Positions 4,989 to 28,842 of a stretch of DNA of 32,000 nt are shown here, piece by piece. The stretch is from Pseudodesulfovibrio piezophilus C1TLV30 (GTDB lineage Bacteria > Desulfobacterota > Desulfovibrionia > Desulfovibrionales > Desulfovibrionaceae). Location: NCBI RefSeq assembly GCF_000341895.1, contig NC_020409.1:3062411-3094410 (forward strand), read 5' to 3'. The translations under genes were made by a program, and so were the position numbers. The notes below the pieces were generated by a model. That model worked only from the letters and a program-made list of their open reading frames with translations. It had not been told where the DNA came from and did no database searches. Within the stretch, counting starts at the first letter, position 1. Every line of letters starts with the position of its first letter.

Positions 4989-5064
4989 GGGGCTGTAGCT
5001 CAGTTGGGAGAGCGCTTGAATGGCATTCAAGAGGTCGTGGGTTCGATTCCCTCCAGCTCCACCA
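4989..5064 (+). tRNA. tRNA-Ala(GGC): tRNA-Ala, anticodon GGC
   Basis: 76 nt, cloverleaf folded by hand. Acceptor stem GGGGCTG/CAGCTCC with G3:U70 (the alanine identity pair). D stem GCTC/GAGC. Anticodon stem CTTGA/TCAAG with loop ATGGCAT, giving anticodon GGC. T loop TTCGATT. CCA is encoded. There is one U50-U64 mismatch in the T stem (GTGGG/CCCTC). Confidence 0.93.
5019..5064 (+). repeat. attL: 46-nt direct repeat (tRNA-Ala from anticodon loop to CCA)
   Basis: aatggcattcaagaggtcgtgggttcgattccctccagctccacca is identical base for base to 28797-28842. The flanking bases differ on both sides (g5018 vs a28796; c5065 vs a28843). Confidence 0.9.
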
Positions 5065-5074
5065 CAAGAAAGTT

Positions 5075-5108
5075 AAGGGTTTCAAGTGAATACTTGGAAC
5101 CCTTTTTT
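5075..5108 (+). terminator. Rho-independent terminator after tRNA-Ala (island-supplied)
   Basis: 12-bp stem aagggtttcaag / cttggaaccctt (one G-U pair), 6-nt loop tgaata, then a T6 run ending at 5108. Confidence 0.65.
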
Positions 5109-5141
5109 CGTGCCTGATGGCGGATTTCAGGAATATGTCCG

Positions 5142-6329
5142 CTATGTGTCCGCCGCTTCCGACCGACTGTTTTCGGTGCCGGTCATGGCGTAGCGCGCGG
5201 CCAGACGATCTTGCGGACCGTCTTCCAACACGCCTTCAAGGTGGCTGTACCGGTCCGTCATGCGCAGGGTCTTGTGCCCGATCATGACGTTGGTCTCCTT
5301 GAGCGTGCAGCCTGCCTTCAGCATGTTCGTGCAATAGGTGTGGCGGTGATCGTGGAAGTGCAGGTCGTCGAAGTCGTGGTCTTTGCACAGCCCTTCCCAC
5401 GCGGCCTTGATGGACCTGAACGGGGTGCCGTCCATGTTGCCGATTACGAAATCGCCCTTGGTCGCCACGCCCCGTTTTTCTCGGTGTCGGGTCACATGCT
5501 CCAAACGAGCTTCGAGTGCTTTGCGGGTGCGGGGCATAATCCGGTGGGTTCGGGTCACCCCGTTTTTGGTGCGGTGGAACGTGATGTGGTTTTCCGCAAG
5601 GTCGACATTGGCCCACTTGAGGCTGAGGACTTCCTGGGTGCTGCACCCGTGCTCGACCGCCAGCAGGATCGCCAGGGGCAAGTAGTGCTTCGCCCTGCGC
5701 TGATGGGCCGCTGCCAGCAGCTTCTCGATTTCGAGGGGCTTCTGGGCCTTCTTGCGCTCACTGGCCTTCTCCGACAAGTATGGGATGTCCCGCGCAATGT
5801 TTTTTTCGATCAAACCCTGCTTCGCGGCCTGTGCGAACACTTGCTTGATGACAAACAATCGGCGGTTCGCCAACACGTTGCAGTTCTTGCCTTTTTCGCC
5901 CTTGGCCACAAGCTTCGCCTTGGTCTGTGCGGCGATGCCGATGCGGTAATCTCGAATGGTCTCCTCCTTGAGGTCATGGAGCAGGGTGTGCTTCCATCCC
6001 TTCAGGACCGGGGCCAGCAGGTAGCCGTACCCGGCATGGCTCGCCTGGGATATCTTTCCTTCCCCGAGCTTTCGGTCCCATTCGTCCCGACACAGCAGGG
6101 CAGCTTGCCCAAAAGTGGGCAGGGACTGCTGCTTCGGTTGCCGAGTTTCCTTGGTCGGCAATCTGCCACTGTCGAGCAGGGTGCGAAGCCGGTTGGCTTC
6201 TTCCTGGGCCAGGTCTTTCCGTCTTAGCGTCTTGTGGTATTCCTTCCTGTCCGTTTCCGGGTTGTTGAAGTGAATGACGTACGCTTTTCCCTTTTTCAGC
6301 GAACGGGTCGCGATGGTGACAGTAGCCAT
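5142..6329 (-). CDS. int: Tyrosine-type site-specific integrase
   Basis: 395-aa ORF next to the tRNA and reading toward it. The C-terminal catalytic region is HFHDHRHTYCTNMLKAGCTLKETNVMIGHKTLRMTDRYSHL (the H-x-x-R ... H ... Y signature of tyrosine recombinases). GGGAGA SD lies upstream within the end of the preceding gene. Confidence 0.9.
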   Translation of the reverse strand: MATVTIATRSLKKGKAYVIHFNNPETDRKEYHKTLRRKDLAQEEANRLRTLLDSGRLPTKETRQPKQQSLPTFGQAALLCRDEWDRKLGEGKISQASHAGYGYLLAPVLKGWKHTLLHDLKEETIRDYRIGIAAQTKAKLVAKGEKGKNCNVLANRRLFVIKQVFAQAAKQGLIEKNIARDIPYLSEKASERKKAQKPLEIEKLLAAAHQRRAKHYLPLAILLAVEHGCSTQEVLSLKWANVDLAENHITFHRTKNGVTRTHRIMPRTRKALEARLEHVTRHREKRGVATKGDFVIGNMDGTPFRSIKAAWEGLCKDHDFDDLHFHDHRHTYCTNMLKAGCTLKETNVMIGHKTLRMTDRYSHLEGVLEDGPQDRLAARYAMTGTENSRSEAADT

Positions 6330-27185: not shown

Positions 27186-27281
27186 AAATCCCTCCTTGGA
27201 TCAAGATTGCGTGTGCTGGTCTGAGAGTGTAAATGTCGGTCGTTCCAAAATACGGAACAATCTGTTTAGAAAGTATGGCTA

Positions 27282-28460
27282 TCAATCGGGTGGGGAATTT
27301 ATGTCTTTGAGCCAAGCCGAAACGATGTCCCATGAGAGGGCATTGGGTTCCCTGTTTTGGTGGAGCTTGAACTCTTGCACCACAAAGCCGTCGTAGTCTC
27401 TGCCGAGGGCGATTGTGCCGCGTTCGGGCCACAAAACTTTGTAAAACGTGAGTGCTCCGGAAGAAGCTTCGTTGAGATAGCTGAATACGCAGTGGTTCAG
27501 TTCCTCTCCTTCTTCATAAAGCTCATGGACGGTTGTGATGGGGACAATCGTGTCAGTGCCAGGCGCTTTAGGCGCAGCAAGGTCAGGACTCTCTTTTTGT
27601 TTTATGTATGCAGCCAATTTTTGTTCATCAGTGACTTCGTTTGCCCATTTTGAATGAAGGCTCAGTAACTGCTTGTAATCCGAACATCGCTTCAGGGCCT
27701 GCCATGGATCTTGTTTTTCCATGAATTCGGCAATCCGCAGACATTCATAGAATTCTTCGCGTATTCGTTTATAGAGAGAATTGAATGTCTCCTGCTCCCG
27801 AATGAGCTTTTTGAAAAATGCGCAACTGAGCAGGTCTTCGTTCATCTCGGAACGGGACAATGCCTTAAGATTAATTGTCCCACAGTGAAGGAGGTGACTT
27901 GTGATCGCCGTGTCCCCCGTGACTTTCTTGAGGGCAAGGAATTCGTTGAAGTCATAGTCTACCATCAGGATTCGTTTGATGAATTTTACCGAAAGCGATG
28001 GGTTGTACGGATGTAGCTGTTTTACGATCTGTTTCTGTTTGAGCCGAATCAATTCACGACATTCTATATACGACATGCTGCCCGTGCTCATCTGCTCGGC
28101 GATGAGCCAAAGCAGGATGGGATTGGAATGGGCGAGATCAATGGCGTAGGACGTGAAGCGCATCAAGCGAAGGATGTTTAGTTGGTGCCATCTGAAAGGT
28201 TTTGCCAGTTCTCGTATTTCTTTGGGGATTCTGTCGAGGAACCGTTGGCGAACCGGACACGGCTTTCGGAATCTCGGTTGAGTGAAGAGTAGGCGCAGTC
28301 CAGGAAGCCGGTCTACCGGCGTCCATTTTTGGTCAATCCAACAGTAGCAACCAAAATCTGCATTCCACGGCGTCAGGCAGAACGCTGCGCCATCTGCTTT
28401 GAAGTAGAGGCAATCTTGGTCCTTTCGGTGATGTATAAGATCTCGGTCTCGTATTTTCAT
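27282..28460 (-). CDS. PcfJ-like protein
   Basis: 392 aa; GGAGG lies 8 nt before ATG 28460. The C-terminal segment VHELYEEGEELNHCVFSYLNEASSGALTFYKVLWPERGTIAL resembles the conserved EG..hxHCV..Y core of the PcfJ family as I recall it. No search was run. Confidence 0.5.
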   Translation of the reverse strand: MKIRDRDLIHHRKDQDCLYFKADGAAFCLTPWNADFGCYCWIDQKWTPVDRLPGLRLLFTQPRFRKPCPVRQRFLDRIPKEIRELAKPFRWHQLNILRLMRFTSYAIDLAHSNPILLWLIAEQMSTGSMSYIECRELIRLKQKQIVKQLHPYNPSLSVKFIKRILMVDYDFNEFLALKKVTGDTAITSHLLHCGTINLKALSRSEMNEDLLSCAFFKKLIREQETFNSLYKRIREEFYECLRIAEFMEKQDPWQALKRCSDYKQLLSLHSKWANEVTDEQKLAAYIKQKESPDLAAPKAPGTDTIVPITTVHELYEEGEELNHCVFSYLNEASSGALTFYKVLWPERGTIALGRDYDGFVVQEFKLHQNREPNALSWDIVSAWLKDINSPPD

Positions 28461-28796
28461 GAATTATTCCTCCCTGCGTGGAGAAATTATGTCAGAGGAA
28501 TGTTCCAGAAAGCGGAATGTAGGGTCGCTCTTTTGAATTAGGGTGATGCTCTTTCAAAGTGATCCACGGGCCATCCCCTAAATCCCCATCGAAGGCGTAG
28601 TCCTGCCAGCAGGTGCTTTGATGGCCGCCAAGGCCGTGTCCGTTATGTGTCCGCTTTTTCCACGACGCCCTGTAAAAAGCGACGACATTCCGCGCTTTCT
28701 GCACGTTCTGTTCAAAAGTGGCTTGAAGTCGCTTGGCGGCGATAAGTCCTTTGTTTTTAAATTGTTAAGTGGTTAGTCTGGTTCAGTGCCAACAAA

Positions 28797-28842
28797 AATG
28801 GCATTCAAGAGGTCGTGGGTTCGATTCCCTCCAGCTCCACCA
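28797..28842 (+). repeat. attR: 46-nt copy of the tRNA-Ala 3' part (no 5' half, so not a gene)
   Basis: Identical to 5019-5064. The sequence upstream (gttcagtgccaacaaa) has no acceptor or D-arm counterpart. Confidence 0.9.

Follow-up and report, generated by a model that had tools for sequence, protein, structure and literature searches.

A tRNA-Ala(GGC) island with defence-type cargo in Pseudodesulfovibrio piezophilus, its relatives and a conserved structured non-coding element

We analyzed a 32,000-nt stretch of Pseudodesulfovibrio piezophilus C1TLV30 (NC_020409.1, positions 3,062,411 to 3,094,410 of the forward strand), here called the window, whose positions are counted from its first letter. 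The features found are collected in Table 1. A tRNA-Ala(GGC) gene is followed by genes for a tyrosine integrase, a small DNA-binding protein and a second tyrosine recombinase, by a long structured non-coding stretch and by the cargo. The latter comprises a very large helicase-nuclease of the ProA family, the remains of an insertion sequence (IS), a pair of AddB- and AddA-like subunits with a third nuclease-like protein behind them, two small genes and, on the opposite strand, genes for a WYL regulator, a double AAA+ ATPase and a PcfJ-like protein. In all likelihood, window 5065-28842 is an integrative island of ~23.8 kb, which occupies the 3' part of the tRNA gene, encodes a tyrosine integrase, belongs to a family of tRNA-Ala islands and carries cargo of the defence type.

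Table 1. Features of the window in order of position (att, attachment site; HTH, helix-turn-helix; SF1, superfamily 1; E, expectation value; GC, G+C fraction; GC3, GC at third codon positions).
Feature	Position	Strand	Basis or remark
tRNA-Ala(GGC), integration target	4989..5064	+	ARAGORN; Rfam tRNA 66.2 bits
attL core, 46 nt, tRNA position 31 to CCA end, island-supplied	5019..5064	+	perfect direct repeat
Island-borne hairpin and T-run, replaces native tRNA terminator	5075..5110	+	inverted repeat 5075-5087/5092-5104, 92% complementary, then TTTTTT
Candidate arm-type integrase site GTCCGYTATGTGTCCGC, left copy	5137..5153	+	motif search; putative function
Tyrosine integrase, 395 aa	5142..6329	-	Pfam Phage_integrase E 1.4e-22; PHROG_1 integrase E 2.9e-39
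HTH_17 (AlpA/Xis-like) DNA-binding protein, 97 aa	6333..6626	-	Pfam HTH_17 E 1.1e-11; PHROG_66 excisionase/regulator E 1.2e-7
Second tyrosine recombinase, Integrase_1 family, likely start ATG 7705	6746..7738	-	Pfam PF12835 E 8.6e-11
Structured non-coding element, ~590 nt, between Integrase_1 gene and cargo	7729..8322	.	four-island alignment; RNAalifold
ProA-family helicase-nuclease, 1968 aa: DUF4011, SF1B helicase, REase_MTES_1575, DUF3320	8424..14330	-	NCBIfam, PADLOC, Pfam
Decayed IS3-family transposase remnant, between ProA and AddB-like genes	14472..14862	-	HTH_Tnp_1 fragment; blastn
AddB-like subunit, 882 aa, C-terminal PD-(D/E)XK nuclease	14991..17639	+	Pfam PDDEXK_1 E 1.1e-20
AddA-like subunit, UvrD-type SF1A helicase and C-terminal PD-(D/E)XK	17632..20766	+	Pfam UvrD-helicase E 1.2e-42, UvrD_C, PDDEXK_1 E 1.7e-6
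504-aa protein, unnamed family, PD-(D/E)XK-like motif RPDGWI...ILIESK...QxxRH	20798..22312	+	alignment of 40 homologs; AlphaFold
DUF4116-repeat protein, 137 aa	22535..22948	-	Pfam DUF4116 E 5.9e-17; missing from L003 block
219-aa near-orphan	23173..23832	-	GC 0.411, GC3 0.409, lowest GC in island
WYL-WCX transcriptional regulator, likely start GTG 24840	23833..24897	-	Pfam WCX E 5.1e-20, WYL E 2.9e-4; PADLOC WYL E 8.1e-25
Double AAA+ ATPase (CDC48/p97-like D1, D2), N-terminal helical ~260 aa	24975..27185	-	Pfam AAA E 6.2e-40, two stretches
PcfJ-like protein, 392 aa	27282..28460	-	Pfam PcfJ E 3.1e-10
Candidate arm-type integrase site GTCCGYTATGTGTCCGC, right copy	28638..28654	+	motif search
attR core, displaced original tRNA 3' part	28797..28842	+	repeat; same flank directly 3' of intact tRNA in L002
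Native terminator hairpin with T-run, 3' of attR	28851-28882		

ARAGORN and Rfam each called tRNA-Ala(GGC) as the sole tRNA of the window, and a repeat finder returned a single long repeat in the 32 kb, the perfect 46-nt direct repeat that marks both island ends. The repeat starts one base ahead of the anticodon loop. Its right copy follows unrelated sequence in place of the tRNA 5' half, and neither program calls it as a tRNA, so that a tandem tRNA array is ruled out. The initial annotation of this DNA had described the repeats in the same terms, as the tRNA segment from the anticodon loop to CCA with a right copy devoid of the 5' half, and had named a tandem array as the case that would speak against an island; the repeat and tRNA calls agree with the description and, with one tRNA only, the objection does not apply.

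An exact-match search with the backbone protein of 29856-31085 retrieved two Joint Genome Institute (JGI) metagenome contigs, L002 and L001. L002 (Ga0118742_100126, 12.1 kb) matches window 20-5064 at 99.84% and then directly window 28797-31868 at 99.87%. Both alignments share one 46-nt copy (L002 5000-5045), the only copy on that contig. L002 is a precise empty site in which 5064 is joined directly to 28843, and the insertion measures 23,778 bp, that is, the island and one copy of the core. A search for an empty site had been proposed with the initial annotation, and its outcome is positive, with exactly one core copy. L001 starts at window 28880, 38 nt past attR. The island brings its own 46-nt tRNA 3' end together with a replacement terminator and hence leaves the tRNA intact; the terminator hairpin is kept at the left end of related islands. 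The 17-nt motif GTCCGYTATGTGTCCGC has two matches in the 32 kb, one inside each island end and in direct orientation, against an expectation of 0.10, which is generous because the pattern was noticed after the ends had been inspected. It is also present in a related island (L052, see below), and its copies may serve as arm-type sites of the integrase.

The integrase gene lies 78 nt from the att core. Its product contains HxxR and H..Y motifs and is matched by Pfam over the catalytic domain only. An integrase and an Xis-like gene had been proposed to lie just inside attL, and the Pfam and PHROG matches confirm both. In the Integrase_1 recombinase the motifs GLRREE, HGLRHE and GHS..AYL were read by eye as the catalytic R, HxxR and H..Y; the protein is conserved in four further contigs (L052, L053, L055 and L060) and in two IMG/VR contigs. 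Related islands were sought by screening metagenome contigs for the junction between the 3' end of the core and the left end of the island. The junction was found in 13 metagenome contigs, 11 of which have an intact tRNA 5' half ahead of the core, and where the contigs reach far enough their integrase genes are 73-86% identical to that of the window at the nucleotide level. L052 contains a complete island of 10.25 kb between two core copies, with the same integrase and Integrase_1 genes and with CbiMQO and CbiK (cobalt uptake), a dihaem cytochrome c and a metallophosphoesterase as cargo. The cargo of L055 includes a PAS/sigma-54 activator and that of L058 a photolyase. The two IMG/VR contigs encode proteins with 89% (integrase) and 85% (Integrase_1) amino-acid identity. 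Thus, the family has a core of ~3.3 kb, consisting of the integrase, the HTH_17 protein, the Integrase_1 recombinase and a structured element of ~590 nt, as well as a shared short right end, and its cargo is interchangeable. On L052 (10279-10397) a second core follows right-end-like sequence and leads into a further left end that differs slightly from the first. In L059, a short contig, non-tRNA, right-end-like sequence likewise comes before the core and a left end after it (reverse strand 36-141). Both junctions fit either tandem islands at one tRNA or the attP junctions of excised circles.

The island resembles the tRNA-integrated islands with a P4-type integrase in its insertion into a tRNA 3' part with duplication of the att site, in the tRNA-proximal position of the integrase and AlpA/Xis-like genes, in its deviating composition, in its presence/absence polymorphism and in modular cargo that includes defence genes. 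It differs from them by the second recombinase of the Integrase_1 type and the ~590-nt structured element in the core. In contrast to P4-like satellites and phage-inducible chromosomal islands, it has no primase/replicase or packaging-hijack genes, and unlike integrative and conjugative elements (ICE) or integrative and mobilizable elements (IME) it has no type IV secretion system (T4SS) or relaxase. Four profile libraries (Pfam, PHROGs, NCBIfam and PADLOC) gave no capsid, terminase, portal, T4SS, relaxase, replication or methylase domain in the open reading frames (ORFs) of the island, in line with the initial annotation, which had seen no capsid, conjugation, relaxase, replication or methylase genes. 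No island ORF matched a relaxase, which alone or together with a type IV secretion or coupling protein would mark an ICE or IME, and a PcfJ-like protein was all that turned up; neither capsid, terminase and portal genes nor a primase or replicase with packaging redirection, as expected of a prophage or satellite, were found in it. Simple promoter and terminator scans gave nothing above chance. In itself the island is a clean, ordinary example of a class that is well known, the tRNA-targeting islands that carry defence genes. Its value lies in the exact boundaries and the natural empty site in a sulfate-reducer-like genome, and in a family in which one fixed core is combined with exchangeable cargo (defence, cobalt uptake, regulators, photolyase), a compact natural platform for cargo exchange. 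Of particular interest are two by-products of the analysis, a candidate defence module of AddAB-like, WYL and AAA+ proteins and the conserved ~590-nt structured element.

The ProA-family protein is the cargo gene product with the clearest link to defence. It matches the NCBIfam model NF058533 ('anti-phage protein ProA') with 2165.2 bits against an equivalog cutoff of 1500, residues 18-1949 aligning to model positions 1-1903, and the PADLOC candidate PDC-S37 with 1205 bits (PADLOC-DB v2.0.0). The domain architecture is the same as in ProA/PDC-S37 over the full length, and the Walker A motif (GPPGTGKS at 693) and the DEASQ motif (at 1313) of the Upf1-like helicase are both intact. An anti-phage role is predicted on the strength of the curated NCBIfam model. 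Together with the empty site, these matches support what the initial annotation had suggested, an island in tRNA-Ala(GGC) with defence-like cargo. A literature search found no primary publication behind the ProA name, and a sequence search of the PDB found no solved structure of a ProA relative beyond the helicase core. Identity with Hhe, a related defence system that likewise consists of one protein, was considered and rejected, since the score is 830.6 bits against a cutoff of 2000 and the C-terminal half alone aligns. In the N-terminal part, residues ~215-260 ('GLVTCLDSSLLFAGALEAAGL...GHAFTGVW') resemble a transglutaminase-like Cys/His core by eye; this likeness has no Pfam support.

The AddB- and AddA-like proteins are encoded by translationally coupled genes. 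The AddA-like ORF opens at 17530, and its likely start codon overlaps the AddB-like stop. The AddA-like subunit combines a UvrD motor (Walker A GSGKT) with a RecB-type nuclease, and its partner, which has no Walker A motif, combines a RecB-type nuclease with four cysteines. In the AddB-like protein C620/C868/C871/C877, D745/D759/K761 and Q780/Y784 are invariant in 15 homologs, a layout of nuclease and cysteines as in AddB with its iron-sulfur 'staple'. The pair thus has the architecture of AddAB and resembles AddAB, AdnAB and RecBCD in general, although its subunits each fall short of those of Bacillus AddAB by ~200-300 aa. Among NCBIfam models AddA and RecB match the AddA-like subunit best, and its matches in the PDB are RecB, AddA, AdnB-like helicases and UvrD. 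With the AddA equivalog models this subunit reaches 174.9 bits (alpha-type, cutoff 860.75) and 172.1 bits (Gram-positive type, cutoff 707.65). The score lies far below all AddA and RecB equivalog cutoffs, so that by this measure the pair does not group with housekeeping AddAB. Gabija was rejected, as only generic matches of the UvrD core to GajB models and no GajA were found. The pair further differs from AddAB, AdnAB and RecBCD in that it resides on a mobile island, is patchily distributed and is often flanked by WYL and immune genes.

The closest named homologs of the pair occur in Pseudodesulfovibrio nedwellii, P. profundus and P. portus (76-81%). A scan of one genome per species yielded 40 loci in Desulfobacterota, Alpha- and Zetaproteobacteria, Myxococcota, Obscuribacterales and Bacillota, with the AddB- and AddA-like genes adjacent wherever both are on the contig. 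When the ORFs within 10 kb of the pair were clustered by BLAST, 11 loci (the window and L003, a relative described below, included) had a WYL regulator and 6 had the same double AAA+ ATPase. Pfam was also run on 165 proteins encoded at most 4 kb from the pair in 35 further loci. Here WYL/WCX (8) and ADP-ribosylglycohydrolase (6) were the commonest neighbours, and Cas3, Cas6, Cse1, McrBC, ResIII and integrases were found as well; the two tallies differ in radius and counts. Cas4-Cas1, HsdM, McrB-like and IS66 neighbours were recognized by eye. The arrangement of neighbours varies, and in one Acidocella locus the AAA+, WYL, AddB-like and AddA-like genes follow each other on one strand. In a relative with 90% identity (L045) genes for a PvuRts1I/SRA type IV nuclease and a WCX protein come after the pair. 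The pair of P. nedwellii (L046) lies between a WCX-dynamin-patatin cluster and an MmeI-type restriction-modification system that is split by an IS, and an ERF recombinase adjoins it. As a whole, this context suggests a defence role for the AddAB-like block through guilt by association, which falls short of proof. A literature search on AddAB-like defence systems found nothing specific. The link of a divergent AddAB-type helicase-nuclease to WYL and immune loci over several phyla offers a testable candidate, a defence system that would make use of a repair-type machine.

Three loci from Obscuribacterales (L011, L027 and L037) have the pair directly beside a type I CRISPR-Cas system with Cas3, a Cas4-Cas1 fusion and Cas6. 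AddAB and RecBCD feed spacer acquisition; hence, the linkage may be functional. In L010 (17513-22649) and L039 (5622-10595) an ADP-ribosylglycohydrolase and a 292-aa protein precede the double AAA+/WYL pair, and in the 292-aa protein two gamma-glutamyl-cyclotransferase-like repeats were seen by eye. No tRNA was found in any of the closest AddAB-like loci, so that the block would travel on other vehicles elsewhere.

Behind the pair lies the 504-aa protein, for which Pfam, PADLOC, NCBIfam, PHROG and PDB sequence searches gave no match. Look-ups by identical sequence with ProA, the integrase and this third ORF, taken as 510 aa, were also negative, probably because the starts chosen for the ORFs deviate from the recorded gene calls; the third gene is recorded with a product of 504 aa. 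A word-indexed search found 5 relatives, and an exhaustive HMMER search among 1.84 billion representatives found 102 remote homologs. In 40 aligned members D175/E189/K191/Q201/H205 are invariant, and a Pfam search with all 40 returned noise only. In the AlphaFold model, which has a predicted local distance difference test (pLDDT) score of 88, the motif falls on consecutive strands and a subsequent helix. Foldseek gave one weak match, to a phage protein annotated as PD-(D/E)XK (E 0.024), and nothing in the PDB at E <=0.001; a profile-profile comparison gave no relation to the AddB-like family. The protein is likely a PD-(D/E)XK nuclease, as judged from the motif and the modelled fold. An 87% homolog on the 4.6-kb contig L004 (123-2460) stands beside an IS200-type Y1 transposase gene, with no other gene of the block, which indicates that the 504-aa gene may also travel alone.

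On the opposite strand, the double AAA+ ATPase contains two Walker A motifs (at 283 and 534) and two Walker B motifs (at 337 and 589), and its top matches in the PDB are Cdc48, VAT and p97. An assignment of the ATPase to IetAS was rejected (IetA 104.2 vs 510 bits; no protease gene). The neighbouring protein combines a WYL and a WCX domain beside a putative defence operon and is predicted to be a repressor. In this it resembles BrxR of bacteriophage exclusion (BREX) and CapW of cyclic-oligonucleotide-based anti-phage signalling systems (CBASS), from which it differs in its partners, a double AAA+ ATPase and an AddAB-like nuclease in place of BREX or CBASS. PcfJ-like paralogs stand beside the AddAB-like pair in L003, L005 and L010. 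The 219-aa protein has a single homolog (~95% identity) in 5.8 billion proteins and no PDB sequence match; a D...ExK motif (LDIIAY...VVFEIKS) was seen by eye only, and its AlphaFold model (pLDDT 41) is unusable. The initial annotation had counted at least five PD-(D/E)XK domains. Three of them are supported by hidden Markov models (REase_MTES_1575 in ProA, the AddB-like and the AddA-like PDDEXK_1), a fourth (504 aa) is likely and the fifth (219 aa) rests on the motif read by eye. Its two SF1 helicases are the Upf1-like SF1B helicase of ProA and the UvrD-like SF1A helicase of the AddA-like subunit, and its double AAA+ ATPase and WYL regulator stand as described. Its summary of the cargo as almost purely nuclease, helicase and ATPase genes is roughly right; it misses the second recombinase, the DUF4116 protein, the PcfJ-like protein and the structured region.

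The composition of the island was compared with 21 kb of island-free backbone in 3-kb windows. For the backbone the GC is 0.496 +/- 0.012 (range 0.475-0.522), with tetranucleotide distances up to 1.65. The island deviates as three zones rather than as two arms: 5-20.7 kb has a GC of 0.54-0.58 and a tetranucleotide distance of 2.0-2.9, 21-24 kb has a GC of 0.446, below the backbone range, and 23-28 kb is indistinguishable from the backbone by either measure. The three hand counts of G+C in the initial annotation (36/60, 24/60 and 29/60) are exact, and its conclusion that the island is foreign agrees with the windowed composition and the empty site. A closely similar block was found on the contig L003 (Logan SRR19237643), which has the AddB-like, AddA-like and third genes and, on the opposite strand, the WYL and AAA+ genes in the order and orientation of the window. 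Amino-acid identities are 76% (AddB-like), 75% (AddA-like), 61% (third gene), 76% (WYL) and 67% (AAA+), which argues against L003 being a recent copy of this island. L003 has two PcfJ paralogs near the block and no ProA, DUF4116 or 219-aa gene; the ProA gene is also missing from L045 and L046. Between the ProA and AddB-like genes lies a gap of 660 nt with the IS3 remnant (local GC 0.473). A fragment of 42 aa (14668-14796, minus strand) matches HTH_Tnp_1 at E 1.1e-7, and in blastn searches the remnant is 67-82% identical to annotated IS3 transposase genes of plasmids, among them one on a Pseudodesulfovibrio profundus plasmid (67.6% over 325 nt).

From hand counts, the initial annotation had inferred two donors, with a high-GC arm (5142-20766) fused at ~20.78 kb to a low-GC arm (20798-28460). 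The GC does fall from 0.58 to 0.47 exactly at the boundary of the AddA-like and 504-aa genes, and the 21-24 kb stretch lies under the backbone range. However, the five-gene block that spans this boundary keeps its gene order in L003 at 61-76% identity, and there, too, the third gene (GC 0.475) is far below its neighbours (0.60). The dip at 20766/20798 is therefore intrinsic to the gene and not a donor seam. Moreover, the WYL and AAA+ genes (GC 0.51-0.52, GC3 0.62-0.65) match the AddB-like and ProA genes and are unlike the low-GC genes, and by GC and tetranucleotide distance 23-28 kb looks like backbone, so that the 'low-GC arm' is really only ~20.8-23.8 kb. A two-donor fusion is very improbable. 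More credible as a seam than 20.78 kb is the IS3 remnant at ~14.4-14.9 kb, and a second seam is marked by the two extra genes at 22.5-23.8 kb (DUF4116 and 219 aa) that L003 lacks. The island is a mosaic: besides the core module and ProA, it contains the AddAB-like/WYL/AAA+ block and two extra genes of low GC. A further alternative is that this mosaic is an immobile remnant of a degraded prophage, a phage satellite or an ICE, its repeats being fossils. Such a history would account for the lack of transfer, packaging or replication genes among the domains found, for the decay seen in the IS3 remnant, for the two relatives of the core module that are catalogued as viral contigs in IMG/VR and for the PcfJ-like protein, whose family (PF14284) was first seen on a conjugative plasmid. 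Nevertheless, the 46-nt repeats have remained perfect, and full-length ORFs are present for both recombinases and the HTH protein, with catalytic motifs of the recombinases readable by eye. The site is polymorphic between genomes that differ by ~0.15% in their backbone. Related islands with other cargo sit at the same site, probably in tandem in L052, which points to recent and repeated activity of the family. We regard an inert remnant as improbable.

For the AddAB-like block, a role in repair has to be weighed against one in defence. The pair and its partners could be a spare AddAB/AdnAB module for end processing and recombinational repair, which would leave ProA as the only defence cargo. 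The architecture fits, with a four-Cys nuclease subunit that carries an inactivated helicase and a UvrD helicase-nuclease; so do the best matches to AddA and RecB models and to RecB, AddA, AdnB-like and UvrD structures, and the ERF recombinase beside the pair in P. nedwellii. Some AddAB-like loci lie among housekeeping genes (tRNA synthetase, TsaD, PurH), which makes a repair role possible. On the other side stand a score (175 vs 860 bits) far below every AddA/RecB equivalog cutoff, the patchy spread over phyla and the recurrent company of WYL, CRISPR-Cas, McrBC, type I, IIG and IV restriction genes, integrases and IS elements. The near-identical L002 lacks the whole block at this site, which argues that the block is accessory and not housekeeping. 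A spare repair module thus appears rather unlikely, and a mobile island with defence-type cargo is the reading that we prefer. The housekeeping neighbours weigh against it, as do several further points. The junctions that may represent attP come from the related L052 and L059, and neither an excised circle nor an attP was seen for this island. At about residue 230 of the integrase, the position of the first catalytic Arg (usually TGxRxxE) reads HGCSTQE, by eye only. The AddB-like protein has no PADLOC or NCBIfam match, and the literature that was found shows no anti-phage activity for this ProA homolog or the AddAB-like block.

According to this preferred reading, the island would owe its place in the 3' part of tRNA-Ala(GGC) to site-specific recombination by the tyrosine integrase, with the displaced original tRNA 3' end left behind as attR. 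The cargo would have been assembled from at least three pieces, ProA, the conserved block past the IS3 scar and the DUF4116 and 219-aa low-GC genes. In the block, an opposite-strand operon of PcfJ-like, AAA+ and WYL genes would face the genes of the AddB/AddA-like pair and of the third PD-(D/E)XK-like protein. The data show the insertion with its boundaries and polymorphism, the family of islands, the domain content and the conserved block. Beyond this, the DNA of invading phages or plasmids may be degraded by ProA and the AddAB-like block, the WYL protein may repress its operon until a signal of DNA damage or infection arrives, and the HTH protein and the second recombinase could act in excision or resolution.

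Between the Integrase_1 and ProA genes lie ~690 nt without a credible ORF; an 86-aa ORF (7815-8075) and other small ORFs in the gaps were considered and look non-coding. The non-coding stretch 7739-8365 is conserved in L052, L053/L055 and L060, and the similarity ends where the cargo starts. Copies of the element lie at L052 2910-3548, L055 2828-3421 and L060 2-606. On either strand RNAalifold gives 141-150 predicted pairs, of which 30-35 show compensatory changes of both partners, and the consensus structures were recomputed in ViennaRNA for formal pair counts. In these, 94.6% of cells are paired, compared with 40-45% when the partners are slid. Changes on both sides occur in 41 pairs, versus 21.3 +/- 2.9 in shuffles (none of 500 reaches the observed number) and 2-9 in slid controls, counts that rest on 4 distinct sequences from which the structure itself was derived. 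The opposite strand scores nearly as well (93.7% of cells paired, 38 covarying pairs), so that covariation does not decide the strand of the element. The minus-strand structure extends to the ribosome-binding site of the Integrase_1 gene and would thus be a long 5' leader of the recombinase operon.

Rfam gave no match at the gathering threshold and noise alone up to E 10. The element has no match in PLSDB plasmids, INPHARED phages or, by pattern, IMG/VR, and the core non-coding region shows no DNA similarity to INPHARED phages; the two IMG/VR relatives end inside the element. A covariance model found the element only in the same islands among the 49 sources searched. With its ~590 nt, many covarying hairpins, a mobile element as carrier and a position near the tRNA site it resembles ROOL/GOLLD-type large RNAs and long 5' leaders. 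In contrast to ROOL and GOLLD, it has no similarity to any Rfam family and is predicted from 4 distinct sequences. We consider the element a strong lead rather than a demonstrated RNA, and it may also act as folded single-stranded DNA. If transcribed, it would extend the biology of integrative elements by a large structured RNA. More speculatively, the element could represent a new class of large structured RNA that is a working part of tRNA-Ala islands, either controlling the int-xis-Int1 operon as a sensor or leader or acting together with the recombinases, and, independently, the AddAB-like pair with WYL and double AAA+ proteins could be an undescribed anti-phage system with an AddAB-type effector. 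We offer this joint proposal tentatively, as a possibility and not as the expected outcome.

Outside the island, between a TetR gene and the next gene, the 10-bp sequence GCCAATGCGG is repeated in tandem with ~7 units (window 31842-31911). The near-identical L002 has 4 units fewer, so that the repeat is of variable number within the population.

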